Source: Candidatus Bathyarchaeia archaeon (GTDB lineage: Archaea; Thermoproteota; Bathyarchaeia; Bathyarchaeales; Bathycorpusculaceae). Taken from it: 64,000 nucleotides of DNA. Made by a program: the position numbers and the translations under genes. Position 1 is the stretch's first letter, and each line of letters begins with the position of its first letter. The stretch is from positions 12,411 through 76,410 of the forward strand of contig JAVZNT010000003.1 in assembly GCA_038882655.1 (NCBI GenBank). The letters are read 5' to 3'. The notes below the pieces were generated by a model. It ran no database searches. It was not told the origin of the DNA and saw only the letters and a list, made by a program, of their open reading frames with translations. Positions 3,242 to 33,682 of the stretch are shown one piece after another.

Positions 3242-4981
3242 ATGCCAGCTAAAAGGAAAAAGAAGGGTGAAGAGGAGAAAATTAAAAAGCCAGAAATGCC
3301 GGAAAAACCATGGTACAAGTTTTGGTCGCCCAGCGTTAGAAAACACATAGACTATCCCGAGGTGCCCCTTTTCGAGTTTTTAAGAGACTCCGCCAAAAAA
3401 TATTCAGATAAGACTGCGATAATCTACTTTGACAGAAAAATAACCTATAAGGAACTGGATTTGCTCTCTGACAGGTTTGCAACTGCCTTAGCGAATTTAG
3501 GAGTAAAGAAGGGGGACAAAGTCGCAATTTATCTTCCAAACGTTCCGCAGTTTGTAATTTCCTATTATGGCGCTTTGAAGGCTGGAGCAATTGTCACTGC
3601 GATAAGTCCGCTTTATAAGGAGCGGGAGGTGGAGCATCAGCTAAACGATTCTGAAGCTGAAACAATAGTTGTTCTTGACTTGCTTTATCCAATTGTGGCG
3701 AAGGTTTGGGGGAAAACAAAGCTTCGAAATGTTATAGTGGCAGGCCTAAAGGATTACATGCCAACTTTTAAGGCTGTTCTCGGTTCCTTATTGAAAAAGA
3801 TTCCATCTCATAAAGTTGAGCGGAAGGCCAACGTTTACTTTTTCATGGAATTGATGGCAAAGTATGAGGCTAAACCGCTGAAAGTTGAAATAAATCCGAG
3901 GGAAGATTTGGCTGCTCTCCAATACACTGGCGGGACTACTGGAATTTCTAAAGGAGCTATGCTCACTCACATGAACCTTGTTTCAAACGCTGTTATGTGC
4001 AAAGAATGGCTGCAAGCCAACGAGGCTGAAGAAGTTGTTTTAACAGTGCTTCCACTGTTCCACATCTACGGTATGACGACAAGCATGAACGCTCCAATAT
4101 TTTTCGCTGGAACAATGGTTATGTTGCCCCGCTTCGACCCAGTAGCCGTCTTGGAAGCCATCCACAAACACAGAGTGACGGTGTTTTGCGGTGCACCGAC
4201 AATGTATGCAATGCTCATAGCCCACCCAGACCTCAAAAGATACGACCTAAAATCAATAAAATTCTGTGTTTCAGGAGCAGCTCCGCTCCCACCAGAGGTC
4301 CAGAAGAAGTTCATGGAGGTTACAGGAGGCGTTTTGGTTGAAGGTTATGGGCTTACAGAATCATCGCCAGTAACACATGCTAACCCGCTTGACAAAACTA
4401 TGAAGACCGTGAAGATAGGCTCAATTGGGATACCTTGGCCTGACACAGACGCGAAAATAGTTGATTTGGAGACAGGCGAAAAAGAGCTTCCACCCGGAGA
4501 AATTGGTGAACTTATAGTTAAGGGGCCACAAGTGATGAAGGGCTACTGGAAAATGCCAGAAGAAACAGCCGAAGTCTTGAGAAATGGCTGGCTTTACACC
4601 GGCGACATTGGAAAAATGGACGAGGACGGCTACTTCTACATAACAGACAGAAAGAAAGATCTAATCAAATACAAGGGCTACAGCGTCTACCCAAGGGAGC
4701 TTGAAGATGTCTTATATGAGCATCCAGCTGTGAAACTCTGCGGAGTTATTGGCAAACCAGACCCTGTTGCTGGTGAAATCCCAAAAGCTTTCGTTGTGCT
4801 GAAAGAGGGAATGACTGCCACCGAAGAGGAGCTGATGAAATTTGTAAATGAGAAGGTTGCACCTTACAAGGCGATTAGGGAGCTGGAGATTCGCAAGGAG
4901 CTACCACTAAGCGCTGTTGGCAAGGTTCTCCGCAGAGTTCTGCGGGAAGAAGAGCTTAAAAAACTGGCTGCTAAAACCTAG
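3242..4981 (+). CDS. AMP-dependent acyl-CoA synthetase (fatty-acid--CoA ligase family)
   Basis: AMP-binding motifs YTGGTTGISKGAMLTH, GYGLTE and WLYTGDIGKMDEDGYFYITDRKKDLIKYKGYSVYPRELE. The Lys-rich first 18 codons may be non-coding; an alternative start gives MPEKPWY. Confidence 0.9.
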   Translation: MPAKRKKKGEEEKIKKPEMPEKPWYKFWSPSVRKHIDYPEVPLFEFLRDSAKKYSDKTAIIYFDRKITYKELDLLSDRFATALANLGVKKGDKVAIYLPNVPQFVISYYGALKAGAIVTAISPLYKEREVEHQLNDSEAETIVVLDLLYPIVAKVWGKTKLRNVIVAGLKDYMPTFKAVLGSLLKKIPSHKVERKANVYFFMELMAKYEAKPLKVEINPREDLAALQYTGGTTGISKGAMLTHMNLVSNAVMCKEWLQANEAEEVVLTVLPLFHIYGMTTSMNAPIFFAGTMVMLPRFDPVAVLEAIHKHRVTVFCGAPTMYAMLIAHPDLKRYDLKSIKFCVSGAAPLPPEVQKKFMEVTGGVLVEGYGLTESSPVTHANPLDKTMKTVKIGSIGIPWPDTDAKIVDLETGEKELPPGEIGELIVKGPQVMKGYWKMPEETAEVLRNGWLYTGDIGKMDEDGYFYITDRKKDLIKYKGYSVYPRELEDVLYEHPAVKLCGVIGKPDPVAGEIPKAFVVLKEGMTATEEELMKFVNEKVAPYKAIRELEIRKELPLSAVGKVLRRVLREEELKKLAAKT

Positions 4982-4988
4982 CTTTTCT

Positions 4989-6530
4989 TTAAATTGACTC
5001 ACTTAATTTCTTCCCAAACTTTTCAGTCCACTCACTGACTGATATGGCGAACTGTTTTTCCACATTGTTTCTATGGATGCTGTTGTATGTACAGAAGGGT
5101 CTAACCTTGCCGTCGGGCGTTGCATAGTGTATGACGCATCTTTGCACGCGGTCTAGATCAAAGTTCCAGACATCCATAAAATGCATTATCCCGATCATGA
5201 CTATCCTGCGCATAAACCTTCCAAGCGCCTCGTAGCTTCCCTTTGTTATAACGTCTTTAAGCAAGCCTCTAACAAGTGGTGACTTCACGAGTGGCAAAAG
5301 TTCCAACATTTTCATCTTCGCCGTTGTCCTCTTACCCTTAACGCCAGAATAGTAAATGTTCCAGAAGATTTCGGAGAAACGGTCAACATCCACGTACTGC
5401 GTAATAGGCTTGTATGAACCGTCCTTTTCAACAACAAGGAATGTTGCTGCTCCACACATGGGATGCATTGTGAATTCTGGATAAACCCTATTCTTCACAA
5501 CGCTCATGCCTTTAGAAATTGGAACAGGCCAGTTGACGGGTCGCCAGTCCCACCGCGTGACAATCCCATTTGTCTGTTCTTCTATTATTTTGATGGTGTC
5601 CGGCACTGTTATGCGCATTTTTCGCATTTCGTCTTTGCGGGCTCTTCCAGCCATAGAAATAGGCTGAATATTGATGCATCTAACAACATCGTGATTTTCA
5701 ACAGCGTAGCGCACTATGTCGCCTAGATCTATGTCGTTTACGCCTCTTGCGAGGGTGACTACCAAAACTATGGAGTCTAAGCCTATTTTTCTGGCATTTT
5801 CCAAAACCTTATGCTTAACTTGGACGAGGTCTGTTCTGCCCCTGGTTTTCTTATAGATTTCTTCCCTTAAACCGTCAAACTGAAGATAAAGTGTGCTCAT
5901 GCCAGCGTCTAAAAGTTTCTTGAAATAGTCTATTTCTTCTGCAATGCGTAAACCATTAGTATTCACTTCCACATGCTCTATTCCAGCCTTTTTCGCCTCT
6001 GCAATAAGCTGTGGCAAATCGTTTCTTATGGTTGGTTCGCCTCCACTGAACTGGAGCGCGTTGCACGCCCAAGGCTTATTGTTTCTAAGCAGTTTAATCA
6101 TATCCACAATCTGCTCGTATGTTGGTTCATAGACATAGTTAACCGCCCCAGCATAGGCGAAGCAGACGGGACAAGCCATATTGCACCGATTTGTGACGTC
6201 TATTATGCCTAAAACCGTGTAAGACTTATGTTGAGTGCATAAGCCGCAGTCGTAGGGGCACCCTTTGACAGTTTTTGTGTGGGGATTTTCCAAGCCATTT
6301 CCGATGTATTTGGCGTTGTACCATCCTCTGTAAATCCACTTGAAAAGCTCAGCGTCCCCCCAGTAAACATCTTCAAACTTTCCATGTTCTGGGCATGTTT
6401 TCTCGAGGTATATTACGCCGTGTTCCTCGTAGATTCTCATGGGAACCTTGTTTAGGCATTCTGGACATAGGCTTGTTGAGTAAGTTTCAAACTTTGCCTC
6501 TTCTTCTTGTTTTTGCATGTTAATCGCCAT
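4989..6530 (-). CDS. radical SAM protein of the MJ0619 family (tetraether lipid synthase Tes / GDGT-MAS-like)
   Basis: N-terminal Cys knuckles CPECL...CPEHG, auxiliary-cluster-like CPYDCGLCTQH, and radical SAM CNMACPVC (CxxxCxxC). Length is 513 aa. The family assignment is from memory of the MJ0619-type architecture. Confidence 0.6.
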   Translation of the reverse strand: MAINMQKQEEEAKFETYSTSLCPECLNKVPMRIYEEHGVIYLEKTCPEHGKFEDVYWGDAELFKWIYRGWYNAKYIGNGLENPHTKTVKGCPYDCGLCTQHKSYTVLGIIDVTNRCNMACPVCFAYAGAVNYVYEPTYEQIVDMIKLLRNNKPWACNALQFSGGEPTIRNDLPQLIAEAKKAGIEHVEVNTNGLRIAEEIDYFKKLLDAGMSTLYLQFDGLREEIYKKTRGRTDLVQVKHKVLENARKIGLDSIVLVVTLARGVNDIDLGDIVRYAVENHDVVRCINIQPISMAGRARKDEMRKMRITVPDTIKIIEEQTNGIVTRWDWRPVNWPVPISKGMSVVKNRVYPEFTMHPMCGAATFLVVEKDGSYKPITQYVDVDRFSEIFWNIYYSGVKGKRTTAKMKMLELLPLVKSPLVRGLLKDVITKGSYEALGRFMRRIVMIGIMHFMDVWNFDLDRVQRCVIHYATPDGKVRPFCTYNSIHRNNVEKQFAISVSEWTEKFGKKLSESI

Positions 6531-12245: not shown

Positions 12246-12914
12246 ATGTCATGGGTAGAGGAAATAATCAATTTCTTCAACTTTATTGGAGGTTTGGTCT
12301 GCCACCAGAAGCCAGAAAGAACTTTGGTGGTGGGCGGTTACCCTCTCCCGGTGTGTGCAAGAGATACGGGTGCGTATATTGGACTTGATATGGGTTATAT
12401 AACGCTACTATTTCTCAGAAATAAGGATGCAAGTGGTCCCCCTAACTTACTTTTAACACTGGTTATGTCAGCACCCTTATATGTGGACTCTTTTGGACAG
12501 TTTTTCAGATTTTGGACCAGTAACAACGATTTAAGACTTTTTACGGGAATCCTTTTTGGGATGTCCCTTGCACCATTTCTGGTCTACACACTTTCGCTTT
12601 TCTTTTTTAAAGGCAAAATTCCATTGTTGAGAAGGATTCAGCCAAAAAATGCGGATTTAAATGCAAAGGATTCATGGTTTAATACTAAAGCTATAGGAGC
12701 AAACATGCTTATTTCAATTCTTTTATTCACTGGTATTAAATTAATTGCAAGCAGCGGATTCTACTTATTCTACTGGCTGCTAAGCATACCTATAATTTCA
12801 GGAGTGGTTTGGCATTTCTTTATTCTTTTGCCCCTCTTAGTGGCAATAACGCTAGTGCATTACTTTAGAAATAGGCTTAGTATAAAAATGCGAAATTATC
12901 ATGGCCAGAAATAG
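12246..12914 (+). CDS. DUF2085-like membrane protein
   Basis: N-terminal CHQKPERTL...PLPVCARDTGAYIG motif followed by several TM helices. Confidence 0.65.
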   Translation: MSWVEEIINFFNFIGGLVCHQKPERTLVVGGYPLPVCARDTGAYIGLDMGYITLLFLRNKDASGPPNLLLTLVMSAPLYVDSFGQFFRFWTSNNDLRLFTGILFGMSLAPFLVYTLSLFFFKGKIPLLRRIQPKNADLNAKDSWFNTKAIGANMLISILLFTGIKLIASSGFYLFYWLLSIPIISGVVWHFFILLPLLVAITLVHYFRNRLSIKMRNYHGQK

Positions 12915-26313: not shown

Positions 26314-26700
26314 ATGCGGAGATTGGAGAACTTGAAAATGCTAATTTTCTGCTCCGCAATTGTTACAGCCTTAATCCTCACAATTCTTCACGGGCTTCTT
26401 CCAATGACTTGGGAAACGGCTCAAACACTGCTTACATTTAACCTTCTATTTCTGCTCATTCTCATGCCATTAAAAGGGTCTATTATGAGAAAAATAGCAA
26501 TACTTTTGTTAGGTAATATATTAAGCTTCATTTGGAGCACCCTTTTCTATCTGCTTGTTCACTTCGCTGTTGGGCAAATGGATGGAGTGTTTAACACCTT
26601 ATATGTTGTTTTGAGTCCACTGTTGAATGTTTTGTGGGTTGTAACATTTTGGTCTACAAGTCTGACCTTTTTGGCTGAACCGGGAAAAGGAAAGCGGTGA
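26314..26700 (+). CDS. hypothetical membrane protein (4 predicted TM helices)
   Basis: Hydrophobic 128-aa ORF. Its stop overlaps the start of the next gene (GTGA at 26697-26700). Confidence 0.6.
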   Translation: MRRLENLKMLIFCSAIVTALILTILHGLLPMTWETAQTLLTFNLLFLLILMPLKGSIMRKIAILLLGNILSFIWSTLFYLLVHFAVGQMDGVFNTLYVVLSPLLNVLWVVTFWSTSLTFLAEPGKGKR

Positions 26701-28019
26701 AAAACTTGATAACTGAAATTTTAGAGGTCTTGCTTTTTCTGTCGACGATCTTGATGGCGGCTTATCTTGTTCGCCATTACATCTTCACCATAACGGTTGC
26801 CAAGAAATCAAAAATAAATGGGAGGAGCCTTGTTGCAGCCGAAACCGCGGTCTTATCTTACCAACCAAAAGTGTCAATTTTGATACCTGCTCACAACGAA
26901 GAACTTGTCATTGGGCGGCTTCTCCAAAGAATGACGGAGCTGACATATCCAAAGGACAAGTTGCAAGTAGTAGTGATAGATGATGCCTCGACGGATAAAA
27001 CTGGAATTATAGCAGAACAGTATTCGAGGCATCACCCCTACATATTTGTTGTGAGAAGACATAGAGAGGAAGGTGGGCGTGGAAAGGCTTCCGCCCTAAA
27101 CGCCGGAATGAAGTGGGCTAATGGCGAGATAATTCTGTGTTTTGACGCTGACTATTACCCGCAAAGAGACATTATAGAAAAACTTGTGAAAGAGTTTAAA
27201 GACCCAAAAGTGGGAGCAGTTCAAGGAAGGGTTGTTGTGCTAAACGAACCGCAAAACATCGTCACAAGGCTTGTTGCCCTTGAAAGGATAGGCGGATACC
27301 GCGTTGATCAAGAAGCCCGCGACAGCCTCGGCTTGATAACGCAGTTCGGCGGGACTGTTGGAGGATTTAGGCGTACCCTTTTAGAATCTCTTGGCGGATG
27401 GGACGAAAATATTCTAGCGGAGGACACTGATTTGACTTTCCGCGTTTATCTCGCTGGTTATAAGGTTAAGTATGTTAGTGATGCAGAGTGCTATGAAGAG
27501 GCTGTTGAAAATTGGCGAGCCTATTGGAGGCAGCGATACAGATGGGCTAAAGGACATATGCAATGTGCCTTCAAGCATTTGCTAAAAGTTCTGAAAAGCA
27601 AAAAGCTTGGACTTAAAGAGAAAATTGATGGCTTATTCTTGCTCGGTGTCTATTTTCTCCCCATTATTGTCCTTTTCTCATGGATAATTGGGGTGTCGCT
27701 AATGTTTCTGAAATTTTCGCGGCATTTCTCTCCATTTTGGGCAACATCCTCCATTGCCCTCTACAGTTCCATCGGAAACTTCGCTCCATTTTATGAGATT
27801 GGAGTTGGCGCCTTTCTTGATGGCAGAAAGAGGGCACAGTGGCTTATCCCCCTACTTCTCTTCACCCTCTTTTACAATATCCCTATATGCACTAAAGCTC
27901 TTCTCGACATTTTTATTTCAAAAATTACAAGGAAAAACAATAACCATTGGGTTAAAACCGAACATTCAGGCAATGGAAACTGTTATATTATAAACTGCGC
28001 TAAAACCTTAGAAAGGTAG
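26697..28019 (+). CDS. family-2 glycosyltransferase with processive beta-glycan synthase architecture
   Basis: N-terminal TM helix. Motifs VVIDDASTDKTG, CFDADYYP, LAEDTDLTFR and WRQRYRWAKG (QxxRW). About four C-terminal TM helices. Confidence 0.85.
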   Translation: MKNLITEILEVLLFLSTILMAAYLVRHYIFTITVAKKSKINGRSLVAAETAVLSYQPKVSILIPAHNEELVIGRLLQRMTELTYPKDKLQVVVIDDASTDKTGIIAEQYSRHHPYIFVVRRHREEGGRGKASALNAGMKWANGEIILCFDADYYPQRDIIEKLVKEFKDPKVGAVQGRVVVLNEPQNIVTRLVALERIGGYRVDQEARDSLGLITQFGGTVGGFRRTLLESLGGWDENILAEDTDLTFRVYLAGYKVKYVSDAECYEEAVENWRAYWRQRYRWAKGHMQCAFKHLLKVLKSKKLGLKEKIDGLFLLGVYFLPIIVLFSWIIGVSLMFLKFSRHFSPFWATSSIALYSSIGNFAPFYEIGVGAFLDGRKRAQWLIPLLLFTLFYNIPICTKALLDIFISKITRKNNNHWVKTEHSGNGNCYIINCAKTLER

Positions 28020-28349: not shown

Positions 28350-29753
28350 ATGTTCTATATAGAATGCACAGTGTGCGGTGCAAAGTTTGAAGCCTATCCA
28401 CCACAATACAGCTGCAAGAAATGTAGCGGCCTCCTAGAATACAGATGTGATAATGAAACGCTTAAAACCGGAACATTTGTCGGGCCTTTCACTTTTTGGC
28501 GTTACAGGAAGCTTCTGCCAAAGGTCAGAAATGTTGTCTCCATGGGGGAAGGAGGAACCCCACTTATCAAGGCGAGAAGACTTGCCAAAGGTATTGGGTT
28601 AAACAATTTATACTTTAAGGATGAGACGCGAAACCCAACGAATTCTTTTAGGGATAGATGCGCTGCCCTAATTGTTTCCAACGCTGTTGATTTGAAGTAT
28701 AAGTCGGTTGCTTGCGCTACAAATGGAAACCTTGGGGCCTCCTTAGCTGCATACTGTGCAAAGTCTGGATTAACATGCCATGTTGTGGTGCCGAGAAACG
28801 TGGATATGGGAAAACTTGCCCAAATGCTGATCTATGACGCCGTAATTGAAGAGTATGGGGAAATAGTGGATGATTCACTGAAAAGGGCAGATGAGCTAGC
28901 CAAAGAAATGGGCTGGTATCAAGGGTCTGCAGAGTTTAATCCGCTATCAATAGAAGCCCTAAAAACCATTGCCTACGAAGTTTACGAGCAAATTGGCGTC
29001 CCAGACTGGTTGATTGCTTCTATGGGAAGTGGTGGGACGTTATATGCTATTTGGAAAGGGTTTAAGGAGCTTGAAATAAGAGGCGAAGTAAAATCCATCC
29101 CAAAGATGGTTGGCGTTCAAGCTGAAGGCTGTTCACCAATTGTAAACGCGTATATGCAAAATATTCATGAGCTAACTCTCAAAACTAAACCTTCAACTCA
29201 CGCTCTTGCCATCCTCGTTAAAAGGCCGTGGTATGGTAAATTAGCCATCAAAGCAATCAAAGAATCTATAGGAATGGCTATATCAGTTTCAGACGAAGAA
29301 ATTTTCTCTGCGGAACAGGAAATTGCAAAACTTGAGGGTGTCTTCGCTGAACCAGCAAGCGCAGCAACATACGGGGCACTTAAGAAACTTGTAAACCAAC
29401 ATGTAATTGGCAAAAAGGACAAGATTGTATGCTTGATAACTGGAAGCGGACTTAAAGCAACAGACATCCTCCAAATTTTAACTAAGAGAAAGAAAACGGC
29501 TATTGTTGGATTAGAGCTTAGTACAAAAGAGAAAATATTGAGGATCCTATGTGAAAATGATGCTTACGGCTATGAATTATGGAAAAAACTCGGAAAAGTG
29601 ATGACGAGGGCAGCAATTTACCAACATTTAAGCGAATTATCAAAAAACGGGTTGGTCTCAAGTTATGAGAAAGATGGGCGAAAATATTTCAAAATAACAA
29701 AACGTGGAATTAAAGCTATTCATGCATTCGAGGATCTAAAACTTTTGTTATAG
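28350..29753 (+). CDS. threonine-synthase-like (PLP fold type II) protein lacking the Schiff-base lysine, fused to a C-terminal PadR-like winged helix
   Basis: N-terminal zinc ribbon CTVCG...CKKCSG. ThrC-like FKDETRNPTNSFRDRCAAL, where Arg101 (AGG, 28650-28652) replaces the PLP lysine. TNGNLGAS and MGSGGT loops are retained. The C-terminal approximately 80 aa (KILRILCENDAYGYELWKKL...IYQHLSELSKNGLVSSYEKDGRKYFKITKRG) are PadR-like. Confidence 0.75.
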   Translation: MFYIECTVCGAKFEAYPPQYSCKKCSGLLEYRCDNETLKTGTFVGPFTFWRYRKLLPKVRNVVSMGEGGTPLIKARRLAKGIGLNNLYFKDETRNPTNSFRDRCAALIVSNAVDLKYKSVACATNGNLGASLAAYCAKSGLTCHVVVPRNVDMGKLAQMLIYDAVIEEYGEIVDDSLKRADELAKEMGWYQGSAEFNPLSIEALKTIAYEVYEQIGVPDWLIASMGSGGTLYAIWKGFKELEIRGEVKSIPKMVGVQAEGCSPIVNAYMQNIHELTLKTKPSTHALAILVKRPWYGKLAIKAIKESIGMAISVSDEEIFSAEQEIAKLEGVFAEPASAATYGALKKLVNQHVIGKKDKIVCLITGSGLKATDILQILTKRKKTAIVGLELSTKEKILRILCENDAYGYELWKKLGKVMTRAAIYQHLSELSKNGLVSSYEKDGRKYFKITKRGIKAIHAFEDLKLLL

Positions 29754-29787
29754 TTTCCTATTTCATAAAGGGCATAAATTTAAAATA

Positions 29788-29805
29788 GTATAGCTACAGC
29801 TATAC
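29788..29805. promoter_or_regulatory. 8-2-8 perfect inverted repeat directly after a TATA-like element (candidate operator)
   Basis: GTATAGCT-ac-AGCTATAC is preceded by AAATTTAAAATA (29776-29787) and lies 20 nt upstream of the ATG at 29825. Confidence 0.45.
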
Positions 29806-29824
29806 CATTACACGAGGCTTTAAA

Positions 29825-30574
29825 ATGTCATTAAAGTCTGCGAACTTAACAAGGCAGCTAAGCATCACGGCTGTTTTCACAGCTCTTGTTTGCATAGCAA
29901 CAATAAGCTTCACTGTTTATGTGCCAAGCACAAAAGGCTATTTTAACATAGGGGAAACAATGGTTTACACTGCAGCCTTACTTTTCGGGCCTTTTGTAGG
30001 AGCTTTTGCTGGTGGTGTTGGTTCTATGCTCGCGGATGTTTTCTTAGGTTATTACTATTATGCACCAGCAACTTTAGTAATTAAAGCCTCGGAAGGTCTC
30101 CTTGTTGGTTTTATCAGTCGGAAAGGGCAAGTTTTTGCTAGGTCCTATGTCAAGCGTGAGTGGAGAATATTTACAATTGAAATAGGCATACTCGTAGGGA
30201 TGCTCATCAGTCTTATTGGTTTCCTTTACTATAGCGGGCTTGTCGAACTCTATTCAGGCATAGTTTCCATAGAAAACCCAGCATCAACAGTTTTCGTCCC
30301 TGTTGAGTTTTGGTTTGGAATAGGGATTCTTACAGTCATTCTAGTAACAGTTTTAGCCTTAACATCTGAACCAGATTTCAGTTTAACAATGATTGCATGC
30401 ATCTTTGGAGGGTTGCTAATGGTTTTCGGATACTTCCTCTACGAACAGCTTTTCCTTGGGGTGTTTGCTTTCGCAGAAGTTCCCATAAACATTGGACAAA
30501 TGACAGTAGGCCTAATTATTGCAGCACCCATTGTGCGAATCGCGAAGCAAACCTTGCCACAACTTAAAAGCTAA
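29825..30574 (+). CDS. membrane protein resembling ECF-transporter S components (substrate unknown)
   Basis: Six or more TM helices, with an S-component-like pattern IGETMVYTAALLFGPFVGAFAGGVGSMLADVFLG...LVIKASEGLLVGFI. Confidence 0.5.
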   Translation: MSLKSANLTRQLSITAVFTALVCIATISFTVYVPSTKGYFNIGETMVYTAALLFGPFVGAFAGGVGSMLADVFLGYYYYAPATLVIKASEGLLVGFISRKGQVFARSYVKREWRIFTIEIGILVGMLISLIGFLYYSGLVELYSGIVSIENPASTVFVPVEFWFGIGILTVILVTVLALTSEPDFSLTMIACIFGGLLMVFGYFLYEQLFLGVFAFAEVPINIGQMTVGLIIAAPIVRIAKQTLPQLKS

Positions 30575-30599
30575 CCTATTAAAATATTTGCTTGAGGCA

Positions 30600-31631
30600 T
30601 TGAAATTGAAACTGCCATTTGGAAAAGTTCCCATTGAAATACTAAAAGAGGTTATCTTTAAAAATCTTGGATTCAAACGCAGAGAGGTTATCCTTGGACC
30701 ATCAGCTGGCTACGATGGCGCGGTTATAGATTTGGGCGAGGAATCTCTGGTGGCTTCAATGGACCCCATTACCGGTGCTATTGAGCGTATCGGCTGGCTT
30801 GCAGTAAATATCAATGCAAATGACATCGCCACTTTTGGTGTAGAGCCAGCTTTTTTCCTTTCATGCATATTGCTTCCAGAAGACACAGACCGAAAAACAA
30901 TTGAAGTTATATGCCTTCAAATGAATGATGCTGCAAACGATTTAAAAATGGCTATTATTGGGGGGCACTGTGAAGTAACGCCCGGGCTCGCTAATCCTGT
31001 CGTTATAGGATGCGCTTTGGGAATAACAGAAAAGGGGCGTTATGTCACAGCCGGTGGAGCTAAGCCTGGGAACAAACTTATTTTAACAAAAAGTGCTGGC
31101 ATAGAAGGAACAGCCATACTGGCAACTGAACGCTATGATTTGCTCCTAAGGTTAGGCGCCGACGGTAAGCTGTTAAAGTCTGCGCAGAAGTTTTTTGACA
31201 AAATAAGCGTCGTCAAAGATGGCTTAACAGCATTCAAAACCGGCGGAGTTAAGGCAATGCATGACCCCACAGAAGGCGGCGTTCTAGGGGGCATCCATGA
31301 GATGGCAGATGCCTCAAACCTCGGCGTTAAAGTCTTTGAAGAGGAAATTCCAGTGGCAAAAGAAACGGCGGAAATTTGCAGGCTTTTAGGGATAGACCCA
31401 TTGCAGCTGATAAGTTCTGGAGCTATGCTTATTGCAGCAAAACAGGAATACATGGAACTTATCATCGAGAAATTAAGGAAGGAGAAGATTGAAGCGTCCG
31501 TAATTGGCGAGTTTTTGAGCGATTCGAAAAAACGGGTAATGGTTCGCCAAGATAAACGTGAAACAAACCTTCTGCGTCCGGGATGCGACCACTTATGGTT
31601 GGCATTAACAAGTCAAAAAGGAGTAAAGTAA
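30600..31631 (+). CDS. AIR-synthase-related protein (PurM/ThiL/HypE/SelD superfamily, function unknown)
   Basis: GPSAGYDGAVIDL...ASMDPITG...NINANDIATFG...GGHCEV...MHDPTEGG. No HypE-type PRIC terminus. Probable TTG start at 30600, because the track ATG at 30519 overlaps the upstream gene. Confidence 0.7.
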   Translation: MKLKLPFGKVPIEILKEVIFKNLGFKRREVILGPSAGYDGAVIDLGEESLVASMDPITGAIERIGWLAVNINANDIATFGVEPAFFLSCILLPEDTDRKTIEVICLQMNDAANDLKMAIIGGHCEVTPGLANPVVIGCALGITEKGRYVTAGGAKPGNKLILTKSAGIEGTAILATERYDLLLRLGADGKLLKSAQKFFDKISVVKDGLTAFKTGGVKAMHDPTEGGVLGGIHEMADASNLGVKVFEEEIPVAKETAEICRLLGIDPLQLISSGAMLIAAKQEYMELIIEKLRKEKIEASVIGEFLSDSKKRVMVRQDKRETNLLRPGCDHLWLALTSQKGVK

Positions 31632-31670: not shown

Positions 31671-32651
31671 ATGAAAATGTTTCAAAACCTAAATATGGAA
31701 AGAGTTTTTATAACCGGGGGCGCCGGTTTCATTGGAAGTCACCTAGTTGACAGACTATGCGAAATGGGCGAAGACGTTATTGTATTTGACAACTTAAGCT
31801 CTGGCACCGTTGAAAATGTCAAAAAATGGTTGAACATGCCTAACTTTAAATTTATACGTGGTGATTTACTATCTCTGAAAGAGATTATTAAATCCATAGA
31901 AGGATGCGACACCGTTTTTCATCTCGCTGCCAACCCAGAAGTTCGTGTTGGTTCGGAAAACCCTAAAATCCATTATGAACAAAACGTGCTTGCAACGTTT
32001 AATCTGCTTGAAGTAATCCGCAAAGTTGGGCGTGTCAAAACCCTAATTTTCACTTCTTCTTCAACGGTTTATGGAGATGCAATAGCAATACCAACTCCAG
32101 AGGATTATGCCCCACTAAAGCCCATCTCAGCTTACGGCGCTTCTAAGCTAGCTGCTGAAGCCCTCATATCAGCATACGCCAACACATACGGCTTTCAAGC
32201 CATAATATATAGACTGGCAAACATTGTAGGCCAGAGGTCGCAGCATGGAGTCATACATGATTTCATAAAAAAACTCAAAGAAAATCCGAAAAAGCTTGAG
32301 ATACTTGGCGATGGCACTCAAACCAAATCCTATTTACATGTTGAAGACTGTATAGACGCCATTCTGACAGGCTTATATAAGAGCAATGAAAGGGTAGGCA
32401 TATTCAATGTGGGATCTGAGGACCAAGTAGTCGTAGAGGAGATAGCAGACATTGTTTGCGCAAAGATGGGGTTAAAAAGTGTGCAATATGTTTTTACAGG
32501 CGGTGTCGATGGGGGGAGAGGCTGGAAAGGCGACGTAAGGGTCATGCTTTTAAACATTGAAAAACTTAAAAAATTAGGGTGGAAGCCAAAACTGAAAAGC
32601 CGTCAAGCAGTTGAGAGAGCGGTTTCAGAAATATTGCATGCTACACGTTAG
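31671..32651 (+). CDS. NAD-dependent nucleotide-sugar epimerase/dehydratase (SDR family)
   Basis: ITGGAGFIGSHLVDRL (GxxGxxG) and YGASKLAAE (YxxxK). Confidence 0.85.
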   Translation: MKMFQNLNMERVFITGGAGFIGSHLVDRLCEMGEDVIVFDNLSSGTVENVKKWLNMPNFKFIRGDLLSLKEIIKSIEGCDTVFHLAANPEVRVGSENPKIHYEQNVLATFNLLEVIRKVGRVKTLIFTSSSTVYGDAIAIPTPEDYAPLKPISAYGASKLAAEALISAYANTYGFQAIIYRLANIVGQRSQHGVIHDFIKKLKENPKKLEILGDGTQTKSYLHVEDCIDAILTGLYKSNERVGIFNVGSEDQVVVEEIADIVCAKMGLKSVQYVFTGGVDGGRGWKGDVRVMLLNIEKLKKLGWKPKLKSRQAVERAVSEILHATR

Positions 32652-33682
32652 TGTCTTTTTAAAAAGAATCTCACGCTTCGCCACTTGTCCTTAACTATTT
32701 CAATGTTGCCAGCAACGCTTCCATGAATCGAGTAAAAAATGTAACAAAGATATGCGCATCTTTCACACTCACTATATTTTTTTCTAAGGACTTCAAATCT
32801 TTCGCTTTCCCAAAGACTGGGCAATTCGAAAATTGAAGCAACCGGTTCGTGAAGATGGCAGCCGGCAACTTCACCTCGATGATTTATTACAAAAAAATTC
32901 CGCAGCGCACCACATTTCCAGATTCTCTCATTACTCAGATAAAGGTGCTTAACAGCCTCCAAAACTTTTGTTGTAATCAAAATATTGTCATTCTCTCGCT
33001 TCATTTCAAGAAGTGAGTCGCAAACCTTAACCATGGCGTCTCTATCCCTTATTAAGAAAGCATCTTCCGCTTTTCCTATCTTAAAAAGTGAGTTTGAATG
33101 GTCGGGCGCGTCATAGGAATATAGGGAATACCAGACCGGTATTCCTTTGTCTAAGAAATATTTAGTGAAATCAACAATCTCGTAAAGATTTGCTTGCGAA
33201 ATAGTAGGCGTCACGCTTACATTAATTCCTTCCATGTGAAGTCTTTCAACAGCTTCCATAGCTTTTTTCCACGCCCCCTTAACCCCCCTTATGCGGTCGT
33301 TTTTATCCGGGTTTAGGCTGTCTATTGAAATCGCAACAAAATTTGTGTGTCTTAACGCGCCAATGTTTTTAACCGCCAAGCTACCATTATCATAAACTGT
33401 TACAAGGAAGTAACGTGACGCATACTCAATTATTTCGTCGATGTCGGCCCTCAAGAGTGGGTTACCACCAGATATCAAAACCTCCACAACGCCAAGTTTT
33501 CGAAGGATATCCAACCCGCGTTTGACCTTTTCAGTTGATAATTCCTTGTTGTCCTGCTCCCGCCAGACATTACACCCTCTACAACGGTAATTACATTTTC
33601 TCGTAACCATCCATTGCACATGATAAGGCCTATTAGGCGCCAAAACCCGCGAAACAATGCTCAAGGCTTTTCTAATGGACAT
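32648..33682 (-). CDS. radical SAM protein with a Cys-rich (SPASM/twitch-like) C-terminal region
   Basis: CNYRCRGC (CxxxCxxC) near the N-terminus. C-terminal CGALRNFFVINHRGEVAGCH...CERCAYLCY. Confidence 0.8.
   Translation of the reverse strand: MSIRKALSIVSRVLAPNRPYHVQWMVTRKCNYRCRGCNVWREQDNKELSTEKVKRGLDILRKLGVVEVLISGGNPLLRADIDEIIEYASRYFLVTVYDNGSLAVKNIGALRHTNFVAISIDSLNPDKNDRIRGVKGAWKKAMEAVERLHMEGINVSVTPTISQANLYEIVDFTKYFLDKGIPVWYSLYSYDAPDHSNSLFKIGKAEDAFLIRDRDAMVKVCDSLLEMKRENDNILITTKVLEAVKHLYLSNERIWKCGALRNFFVINHRGEVAGCHLHEPVASIFELPSLWESERFEVLRKKYSECERCAYLCYIFYSIHGSVAGNIEIVKDKWRSVRFFLKRH

Follow-up and report, generated by a model that had tools for sequence, protein, structure and literature searches.

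The question raised by this locus is whether an archaeal protein with the fold of threonine synthase (ThrC) is still an enzyme. Its gene lies at positions 28350–29753 of a 64,000-nucleotide stretch of a Candidatus Bathyarchaeia archaeon genome (assembly GCA_038882655.1, contig JAVZNT010000003.1, forward-strand positions 12,411–76,410; hereafter the window), and its closest homologues, where a source name is given, are called 'threonine synthase'. A preliminary description of the locus had pointed to a ThrC-like domain lacking the lysine that binds pyridoxal 5'-phosphate (PLP), fused to a PadR-type winged helix-turn-helix (wHTH), and had proposed a ligand-sensing pseudoenzyme regulator. This proposal receives strong comparative support: the fusion, the loss of the lysine, a predicted target gene and a palindromic motif co-occur across archaeal phyla. 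We favour, at a probability of roughly 0.6, the reading that the fusion protein is a one-component repressor responsive to PLP, and thus to vitamin B6 (B6), rather than a threonine synthase. Taken by its parts, the protein would very likely be a transcription factor that acts on a 22-bp operator and on a neighbouring gene for a transporter S component; that its effector is a B6 vitamer and that it represses its targets is probable.

Domain organization and the lysine site

Both halves of the open reading frame were confirmed by Pfam, which reported a PALP domain (E = 7e-77) and a PadR domain (PF03551; E = 3e-12, 46.6 bits against a gathering score of 27). The best sequence relatives in the PDB were threonine synthases (2zsj with E = 2.5e-60, followed by 2d1f, 6cgq and 1uim); the identity to solved ThrC proteins was 35–38%, and the TIGR00260 model gave 209.9 bits (cut-off 167.1). 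The protein was modelled with AlphaFold2, using an alignment of 62 distant homologues. The predicted local distance difference test score (pLDDT) of the model was 92.9 and fell below 50 solely in the linker between the two domains. The large domain matched ThrC structures best in Foldseek (6cgq, 2zsj and 1v7c; TM-scores of 0.85–0.88, normalised to the target), and none of the solved structures among the Foldseek matches covered the C-terminal domain within the same chain. Searched alone, the C-terminal 80 residues had the PadR-family regulators 1xma, 3l7w and 4esb as nearest PDB sequences. The topology of this part of the model is helix-helix-helix-wing-helix (a1-a2-a3-wing-a4), with helices at residues 386–402, 407–413 and 420–432, the wing at 436–449 and the C-terminal helix at 451–466. 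At the N-terminus lies a four-cysteine zinc ribbon, of which C25 was invariant and C6, C9 and C22 nearly so among 62 distant fusion proteins; the ribbon is also present in the nearest unfused ThrC-like proteins. The window holds no second PALP gene.

Alignments to 2zsj, 2d1f and 6cgq placed the segment NPTNSFRDRC opposite NPTGSFKDRG, with Arg101 at the position of the Schiff-base lysine, as had been read from the AGG codon. In the same alignments ATNGNL stood opposite ASTGNT and GSGGT opposite GNAGN, and the loops TNGNLGAS and MGSGGT noted earlier are indeed present. A survey of homologues confirmed the loss. Among the 120 closest proteins (65–100% identity) the residue at the lysine site was R in 116, S in 2, M in 1 and K in none; one protein did not fit the motif pattern, hence the count of 119 non-lysine residues in 119. 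When 1.84 billion cluster representatives were searched and the best 150 matches aligned, the lysine was absent from 70 of the 72 winged-helix fusions and kept in 69 of the 71 relatives without a winged helix, the remaining two being truncated fragments of fusion proteins. The residues at this site in the distant fusions include L (19), R (15), I (14), V (5), T (5), M (4) and F (3). A sequencing or assembly error, AAG read as AGG, would require only a single-base difference; this explanation has a negligible probability and is refuted by the distribution of non-lysine residues among the homologues, which come from independent assemblies for the 119 close relatives and carry L, I, V, M, F or T in other clades.

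The elements of the PLP pocket were conserved in the fusions as strongly as in the unfused enzymes. The contacts kept are F100 and the rest of the NPTxSF-DR segment, the GN-motif residue N127, T364, and the glycine-rich phosphate loop (G226-x-G228). Other hallmarks of ThrC were replaced in the window protein: N-S by S-A at 193–194, R by S200, and the T of STGNT by L128, the canonical ThrC representatives having N-S, R and T at the compared positions. In structures of T. thermophilus ThrC, the phosphate of O-phosphohomoserine is bound by N-S and Arg of NSxNPxR together with the Thr of STGNT. Among the residues specific to the fusions are D/E at 152 and a Tyr at 157 that many members have. Since the PLP contacts are kept and both the lysine and the substrate-phosphate residues are lost, the domain would present a cofactor pocket without the chemistry and without the substrate site of ThrC. 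The fusion is thus predicted to stand outside ThrC in the functional sense, two defining features of which (the lysine and the substrate-phosphate residues) it lacks.

The lysine is not lost everywhere: the preliminary description was right that it is missing from the window protein, and the loss is frequent in fusions, but 7 of 35 species-level fusion loci keep it. These Lys-retaining fusions share their S-component neighbour and their palindrome with the others, and they likewise lack the substrate-phosphate residues of ThrC. They were found in Bathyarchaeia (L013, L014) and in Promethearchaeia, Hermodarchaeota and unclassified archaea (L018–L023), and the lysine is also kept in the representative clusters P0121 and P0126. 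Further Lys-keeping fusion genes were noted in L208 (4001–5413) and L211 (4001–5428), Loki/Promethearchaeia being among the carriers. Because these proteins share the neighbour, the operator and the loss of the substrate site, the loss of the lysine appears to be younger than the fusion and the sensor role, and to have happened more than once. The Lys-retaining proteins may be evolutionary intermediates or versions of the sensor that hold PLP covalently; one may speculate that loss of the lysine made cofactor binding reversible.

In principle, the protein could still be a threonine synthase or another PLP enzyme that has gained a DNA-binding domain, bifunctional in the manner of the regulator RbkR. 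The public annotation, the TIGR00260 score above cut-off and the minority of fusions with a lysine speak for this. We consider it very improbable, however, as ThrC chemistry needs a lysine as Schiff base and general base, and this residue is missing from the window protein as well as from 70 of 72 distant fusions; even the Lys-retaining members are devoid of the substrate-phosphate residues. In addition, two metagenome-assembled genomes (MAGs) contain a Lys-less fusion together with a separate, unfused, Lys-bearing ThrC (L026 with L058, and L029 with L041).

The neighbouring transporter gene and the palindromic motif

The fusion gene is followed in the window by a gene for an S component of an energy-coupling factor (ECF) transporter (Table 1). 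The assignment to PF07155 was clear (E = 5.6e-29, 101.8 bits against a gathering score of 26.7), and the sole PDB sequence match was 4hzu_S, HmpT of Lactobacillus brevis (E = 7e-11). The S component is the only widely conserved neighbour of the fusion gene. By tblastn, a homologue adjoined the fusion in 27 of 35 species-level loci and an unfused ThrC gene in 0 of 45. Across the phyla the S gene is found downstream and co-directional, downstream and convergent, or upstream and divergent. In L005 and L049 it is followed by genes for the ECF ATPases (EcfA/EcfA'), and L005 has an EcfT-type (CbiQ) gene as well.

The palindrome GTATAGCT-AC-AGCTATAC at 29788–29805, already noted in the preliminary description, is real, and a role as operator is supported by its conservation across several archaeal phyla. 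It forms the core of a 22-bp motif, and its symmetry extends to arms of 12 nucleotides (29784–29795 and 29798–29809). The palindrome is unique in the window, where 0.12 chance matches are expected at up to 3 mismatches. In Bathyarchaeia the consensus is TAGTATAGTT-NN-AACTATACTA; in Asgard archaea it is TATATAAGTT-NN-AACTTATATA, usually in two tandem copies; in Thorarchaeota and Nitrososphaerota the motif reads TATATA(A/G)G-N6-C(C/T)TATATA. Of the 27 species-level loci with an S gene by tblastn, at least 24 have the motif ahead of that gene, always a few tens of bases upstream of its start, and it also occurs in the intergenic regions between pdxS and the fusion and between a permease gene and the fusion. 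A motif search with up to 2 mismatches in independent metagenome loci (752 kb) gave 75 sites, all of them upstream of fusion or target genes: 73 were within 900 bp upstream of a fusion gene, and two preceded an S gene that is shifted by a few kb. The motif in the window begins at the end of a TATA-like element and ends 18 bp before the ATG of the S gene, which would be where archaeal repressor sites are usually found. No second copy was found in the window and none upstream of the regulator gene, so that autoregulation is not indicated for the co-directional arrangement.

Other explanations for the palindrome were considered. On the minus strand it is counted as a 'terminator' by a scan for sigma-70 promoters and hairpin terminators, which carries no information for an archaeon; we rejected this role because the palindrome is also found between divergent genes, where there is no gene end. 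A bidirectional promoter with two opposed TATA boxes could also give a palindrome. Counted against this are its equal presence upstream of a single gene in the co-directional and convergent loci, the conservation of the inner AGTT-NN-AACT core, and the lack of any other occurrence of the palindrome in about 1.2 Mb of DNA. A search of the region against Rfam gave no riboswitch, the sole match being a chance-level snoRNA inside a coding region.

Two further features of the DNA were observed. In the Asgard loci L018–L023 and L211 the tandem palindromes upstream of the S gene are 16–30 bp apart, which suggests cooperative binding of two dimers. In the window, a 9-nucleotide inverted repeat, AGGCTTTAA / TTAAAGTCT at 29815–29823 / 29831–29839, brackets the start codon of the S gene.

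Vitamin B6 as the probable effector

The family of the S component gives the first indication of the ligand. PdxU and PdxU2/HmpT are S components for B6 vitamers and belong to COG4720/PF07155 (PMC9997740). HmpT was shown to bind pyridoxamine, with Glu41, His84 and Gln43 as substrate contacts (PMC4860826). In the alignment with 4hzu_S the equivalent of Glu41 is conserved in the S component of the window and a Lys stands at the position of His84; Gln43 was unmapped. The decisive evidence for the predicted B6 link comes from Nitrososphaerota, in which the fusion gene is divergent from pdxS-pdxT, the operon for PLP synthase, with the palindrome family between them (L080, L081, L094, L151, L155 and L198; in L080 Pfam gave SOR_SNZ with E = 2e-95 for pdxS and SNO with E = 2e-48 for pdxT). 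In L119, the two pdx genes precede the fusion on its own strand. In L082 and L084–L087, which belong to the pdxST-linked clade, the fusion faces an S component and a gene of the AIR-synthase (AIRS)/PurM superfamily, again with the motif. In some Nitrososphaerota a permease gene of the APC superfamily (PF13520) is divergent from the regulator with the palindrome between; it is a candidate for a new B6 vitamer transporter. Neighbours were also counted with tblastn queries in 96 metagenome loci having at least 700 bp of upstream sequence: 61 had a divergent S component, 4 pdxS(T), 2 a permease and 1 a downstream S gene.

In the main alternative, the transcription factor would sense an amino acid or phospho-amino acid (threonine, O-phosphohomoserine or phosphoserine), either directly or, as in GabR, as an external aldimine with permanently bound PLP; the preliminary description had likewise suggested a ligand of this kind. 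The sensor descends from ThrC, and the APC family divergent from the fusion in L039, L083, L099 and L122 is named for amino acid permeases. Moreover, the cofactor bound to lysine-less mutants of PLP enzymes can trap amino acids as stable external aldimines. Nevertheless, we regard this alternative as unlikely and the earlier suggestion as unsupported: the residues for the substrate phosphate of ThrC are not conserved in the fusion family, and the genes found under the operator include none of the threonine or homoserine pathway; recurrently they encode the PdxU/HmpT-type S component, PdxS-PdxT or a permease. The loss of the substrate-phosphate residues, the retained PLP contacts and the B6-type or permease target genes together make a B6 vitamer, PLP or pyridoxamine 5'-phosphate (PMP), the likelier effector.

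Less probable still is that regulator and operator are real and serve a micronutrient other than B6, such as hydroxymethylpyrimidine or riboflavin, with the AIRS-like gene in the same pathway. HmpT was initially predicted to carry hydroxymethylpyrimidine, a thiamine precursor (PMC4860826); the Pfam title of PF07155 is 'riboflavin transporter S component', and ThiL is the second-best NCBIfam match of the AIRS-like partner. On the other hand, pdxS-pdxT is directly divergent in six loci with the motif between, the pocket of the sensor is a PLP pocket, and RibU proper belongs to COG3601 and is controlled in Archaea by RbkR (PMC5397151).

For the B6-responsive repressor we propose the following mechanism. 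A fold-type II domain derived from ThrC would have become a sensor by keeping the cofactor pocket and losing the Schiff-base lysine and the grip on the substrate phosphate. In a B6-replete cell PLP (or PMP) would occupy the lysine-less pocket non-covalently and stabilise the DNA-binding state of a dimer. ThrC enzymes are dimeric, and the two winged helices would therefore read the two arms of the palindrome. The liganded dimer, seated on the operator over or just downstream of the TATA-like element, would block the promoter and, in the window, shut off the S component for B6 import together with the AIRS-like partner; in other lineages the pdxST operon or the permease gene would be the target. 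What we infer here is that the protein binds DNA, that it does so as a dimer, that it represses rather than activates, and which effector it responds to.

Several points weigh against this reading. What the model says on binding of DNA and ligand and on the direction of regulation is drawn from computed features, namely architecture and fold, the conserved lysine loss, conservation of the PLP contacts, loss of the substrate contacts, the gene pairing and the operator motif. The arms of the motif are TATA-like, and its conservation may stem partly from promoter elements rather than from an operator. With a Lys at the position of HmpT His84, and with members of PF07155 differing in specificity, the assignment of a B6 vitamer as the substrate of the S component is tentative. 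By tblastn, neither pdxS nor pdxT nor an ECF energising module was found in the window; for this lineage, the transporter family and the evidence from other phyla carry the B6 link. Of the 96 metagenome loci, 28 had no S component, pdxS(T) or permease by tblastn, although the upstream open reading frames of four of them encode S-component-like membrane proteins too diverged for the queries. Members from Thermococcales (L213, L029) have neither an S component nor pdxST as neighbour, so their targets must be elsewhere in the genome. The B6 model also leaves the role of the conserved AIRS-like gene unaccounted for.

The closest functional parallel is found in Bacteria. The MocR/GabR regulators, PdxR in particular, also combine a sensor derived from a PLP enzyme with a winged helix and follow a logic of cofactor feedback. 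PdxR regulons comprise pdxST, pdxK and pdxU, and the fusion is predicted to control matching kinds of genes (pdxST and a pdxU-type transporter); Archaea are reported to lack MocR regulators (PMC5320631). In MocR proteins the wHTH is N-terminal and of the GntR type, and the sensor is a fold-type I aminotransferase domain with its PLP lysine in place, whereas the fusion has a C-terminal PadR-type wHTH and a fold-type II ThrC sensor in which the lysine is usually lost. The two are thus analogous and not homologous, sharing neither domain. Among archaeal regulators, RbkR (riboflavin kinase and wHTH) and ThiR (ThiN and wHTH) are likewise one-component proteins with a domain of the vitamin-pathway type and a wHTH, and they also have a palindromic operator of 16–22 bp upstream of vitamin transporter or biosynthesis genes; the RbkR regulon, too, was found by comparative genomics (PMC5397151). 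RbkR is still an active kinase, in contrast to the predicted dead ThrC sensor; the vitamin differs and the domains are unrelated, Pfam having detected solely PALP and PadR-type domains in the fusion and no riboflavin kinase or ThiN homology. With the zinc-ribbon type of archaeal ThrC (EC 4.2.3.1; PRK08197-like) the fusion shares the fold, the N-terminal ribbon and the PLP-pocket motifs; it differs by the missing Schiff-base lysine and substrate-phosphate residues, the additional linker and wHTH and the lack of a threonine-pathway context. To the PadR family (LmrR, PadR, 1xma) it belongs by its DNA-binding domain alone: in PadR proteins the wHTH is N-terminal, with ligand binding and dimerisation in or next to it, whereas here it is a C-terminal appendage on a large enzyme-like sensor.

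Distribution, annotation and further neighbours

The 120 closest proteins all come from Bathyarchaeia; each has a PALP domain and all but one partial entry a PadR domain. A scan of one genome per GTDB species found full-length fusions in Bathyarchaeia, in the Asgard groups Thor-, Hermod-, Jord- and Promethearchaeia, and in Nitrososphaerota, Nitrosopumilales, Methanomethylicota, Desulfurococcales and uncultured Thermococci. Thermococcus chitonophagus is a cultured carrier (P0137 = WP_068578498.1). In a neighbour-joining tree of the PALP domain the unfused, Lys-bearing proteins stood apart from two clades of fusions, an 'Arg-type' that holds the window protein and a 'hydrophobic-type'. A codon-level scan of metagenomes for NPTGSF[F/L/I/M/V]DRG returned 120 stretches, 119 of which encode relatives of the fusion, and a winged helix was matched in every gene whose C-terminal end is present.

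The NCBIfam model NF004170 (PRK05638, 'threonine synthase', equivalog) aligns end to end with the window protein, winged helix included, and gave it 396.8 bits, just below the cut-off of 421. The T. chitonophagus protein, which has Arg at the lysine site, scored 799.6 bits. This score on an Arg-bearing member and the full-length alignment indicate that NF004170 is a model of the fusion family, and its functional name is very probably wrong for that family. Thousands of database entries bear the name threonine synthase along with this equivalog, which can skew calls of threonine prototrophy in MAGs.

The fusion had been thought undescribed. This holds for the regulatory role: a search of full-text literature, outside which most subscription journals fall, gave no description of the fusion as a regulator and no archaeal B6 regulator, and an earlier description is possible. 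It does not hold for the architecture, which is abundant in databases and is the basis of NF004170. What is new would be a family of enzyme-derived one-component vitamin regulators, the kind itself being known. We put it at slightly better than even that this is the first archaeal family of B6 (PLP)-responsive transcription factors, in which ThrC, through fusion to a PadR winged helix and subsequent loss of the Schiff-base lysine, became a reversible cofactor sensor, with an operator-defined B6 regulon and misannotated throughout. The regulon would consist of the PdxU-like S component, pdxST, the APC-type permease (maybe a new B6 transporter) and the PurM-superfamily enzyme (maybe a missing salvage step), and the family would span Bathyarchaeia, Asgard archaea, Nitrososphaerota and Thermococcales. 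If true, the gap left in Archaea by the absence of MocR/PdxR would be filled by an unrelated scaffold, and the case would be a natural conversion of an enzyme into a sensor with Lys-retaining intermediates still extant. With the 22-bp operator, the B6 regulon could then be mapped in the uncultured lineages that dominate sediments and soils (Bathyarchaeia, Asgard archaea, ammonia-oxidising Nitrososphaerota), and the operator would point to candidate B6 transporters, a major gap in B6 biology (PMC9997740), and to an uncharacterised PurM-superfamily enzyme.

Table 1. Positions of the features discussed, in the window or in the locus indicated, with the basis of each assignment.
Feature	Sequence	Positions	Strand	Basis
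Fusion gene, 467 aa, predicted B6-responsive repressor	window	28350..29753	+	open reading frame; PALP + PadR; AlphaFold2; Foldseek
N-terminal zinc ribbon, four Cys (C6, C9, C22, C25)	window	28365..28424	+	Cys conservation among 62 distant fusions
Fold-type II PLP (ThrC-like) domain, residues 63–365	window	28536..29444	+	Pfam; structure-protein alignments; pocket comparison
AGG codon of Arg101, site of the PLP Schiff-base lysine	window	28650..28652	+	sequence; ThrC alignments
Flexible linker between sensor and DNA-binding domains, residues 376–389	window	29475..29516	+	pLDDT <50
PadR-type wHTH, residues 396–458	window	29535..29723	+	Pfam PadR; nearest solved sequences; secondary structure of the model
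A/T-rich TATA-box-like element ATAAATTTAAAATA, inferred S-component promoter	window	29774..29787	+	sequence read; distance to the ATG at 29825
Predicted 22-bp palindromic operator TAGTATAGCTACAGCTATACCA, putative site of the fusion protein	window	29786..29807	.	uniqueness; conservation upstream of the S gene
ECF S component, PdxU/HmpT family (PF07155/COG4720), predicted B6 vitamer uptake	window	29825..30574	+	Pfam; PDB match
AIR-synthase/PurM-superfamily gene (HypE/ThiL-like)	window	30588..31631	+	Pfam AIRS + AIRS_C; NCBIfam and PDB matches
AIRS-like gene	L084	2117-3115
AIRS-like gene	L085	1985-3046
AIRS-like gene	L087	2129-3145
AIRS-like gene	L050	~4113-5072
APC permease gene	L039	~4368-5900	-
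APC permease gene	L083	2390-3961	-
APC permease gene	L099	9580-11148
APC permease gene	L122	3935-5506
HAD hydrolase gene	L084	5477-6142	-
HAD hydrolase gene	L087	5437-5880	-
HAD hydrolase gene	L050	7449-8162	-

The AIRS-like gene follows the S gene in Bathyarchaeia and Nitrososphaerota. In the window its start was placed at the first in-frame TTG past the stop of the S gene, and it is predicted to be co-transcribed with the S component under the operator of the latter. The best NCBIfam matches of the protein were HypE and then ThiL, all below every NCBIfam cut-off. The enzyme is a candidate for an uncharacterised, ATP-dependent reaction in the salvage of B6 (or of another compound).

Just 3' of the regulator, and convergent with it, a gene for a HAD-family hydrolase was seen in several loci of Nitrososphaerales and Nitrosopumilales. 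PLP phosphatases such as YbhA are HAD enzymes, and the gene may therefore share the B6 theme. In Thermococcales the fusion directly follows a KH/beta-CASP (aCPSF1-type) gene (L213, 6001–7326, from Thermococcus chitonophagus CP015193.1, and L029). In the window, the flanking GT2 glycosyltransferase gene (26697–28019) is syntenic in L001, L003 and L012, and a radical-SAM/SPASM gene (32648–33682) in L003 and L012; as this synteny is confined to close relatives among Bathyarchaeia, both genes are unrelated to the pair of regulator and transporter.

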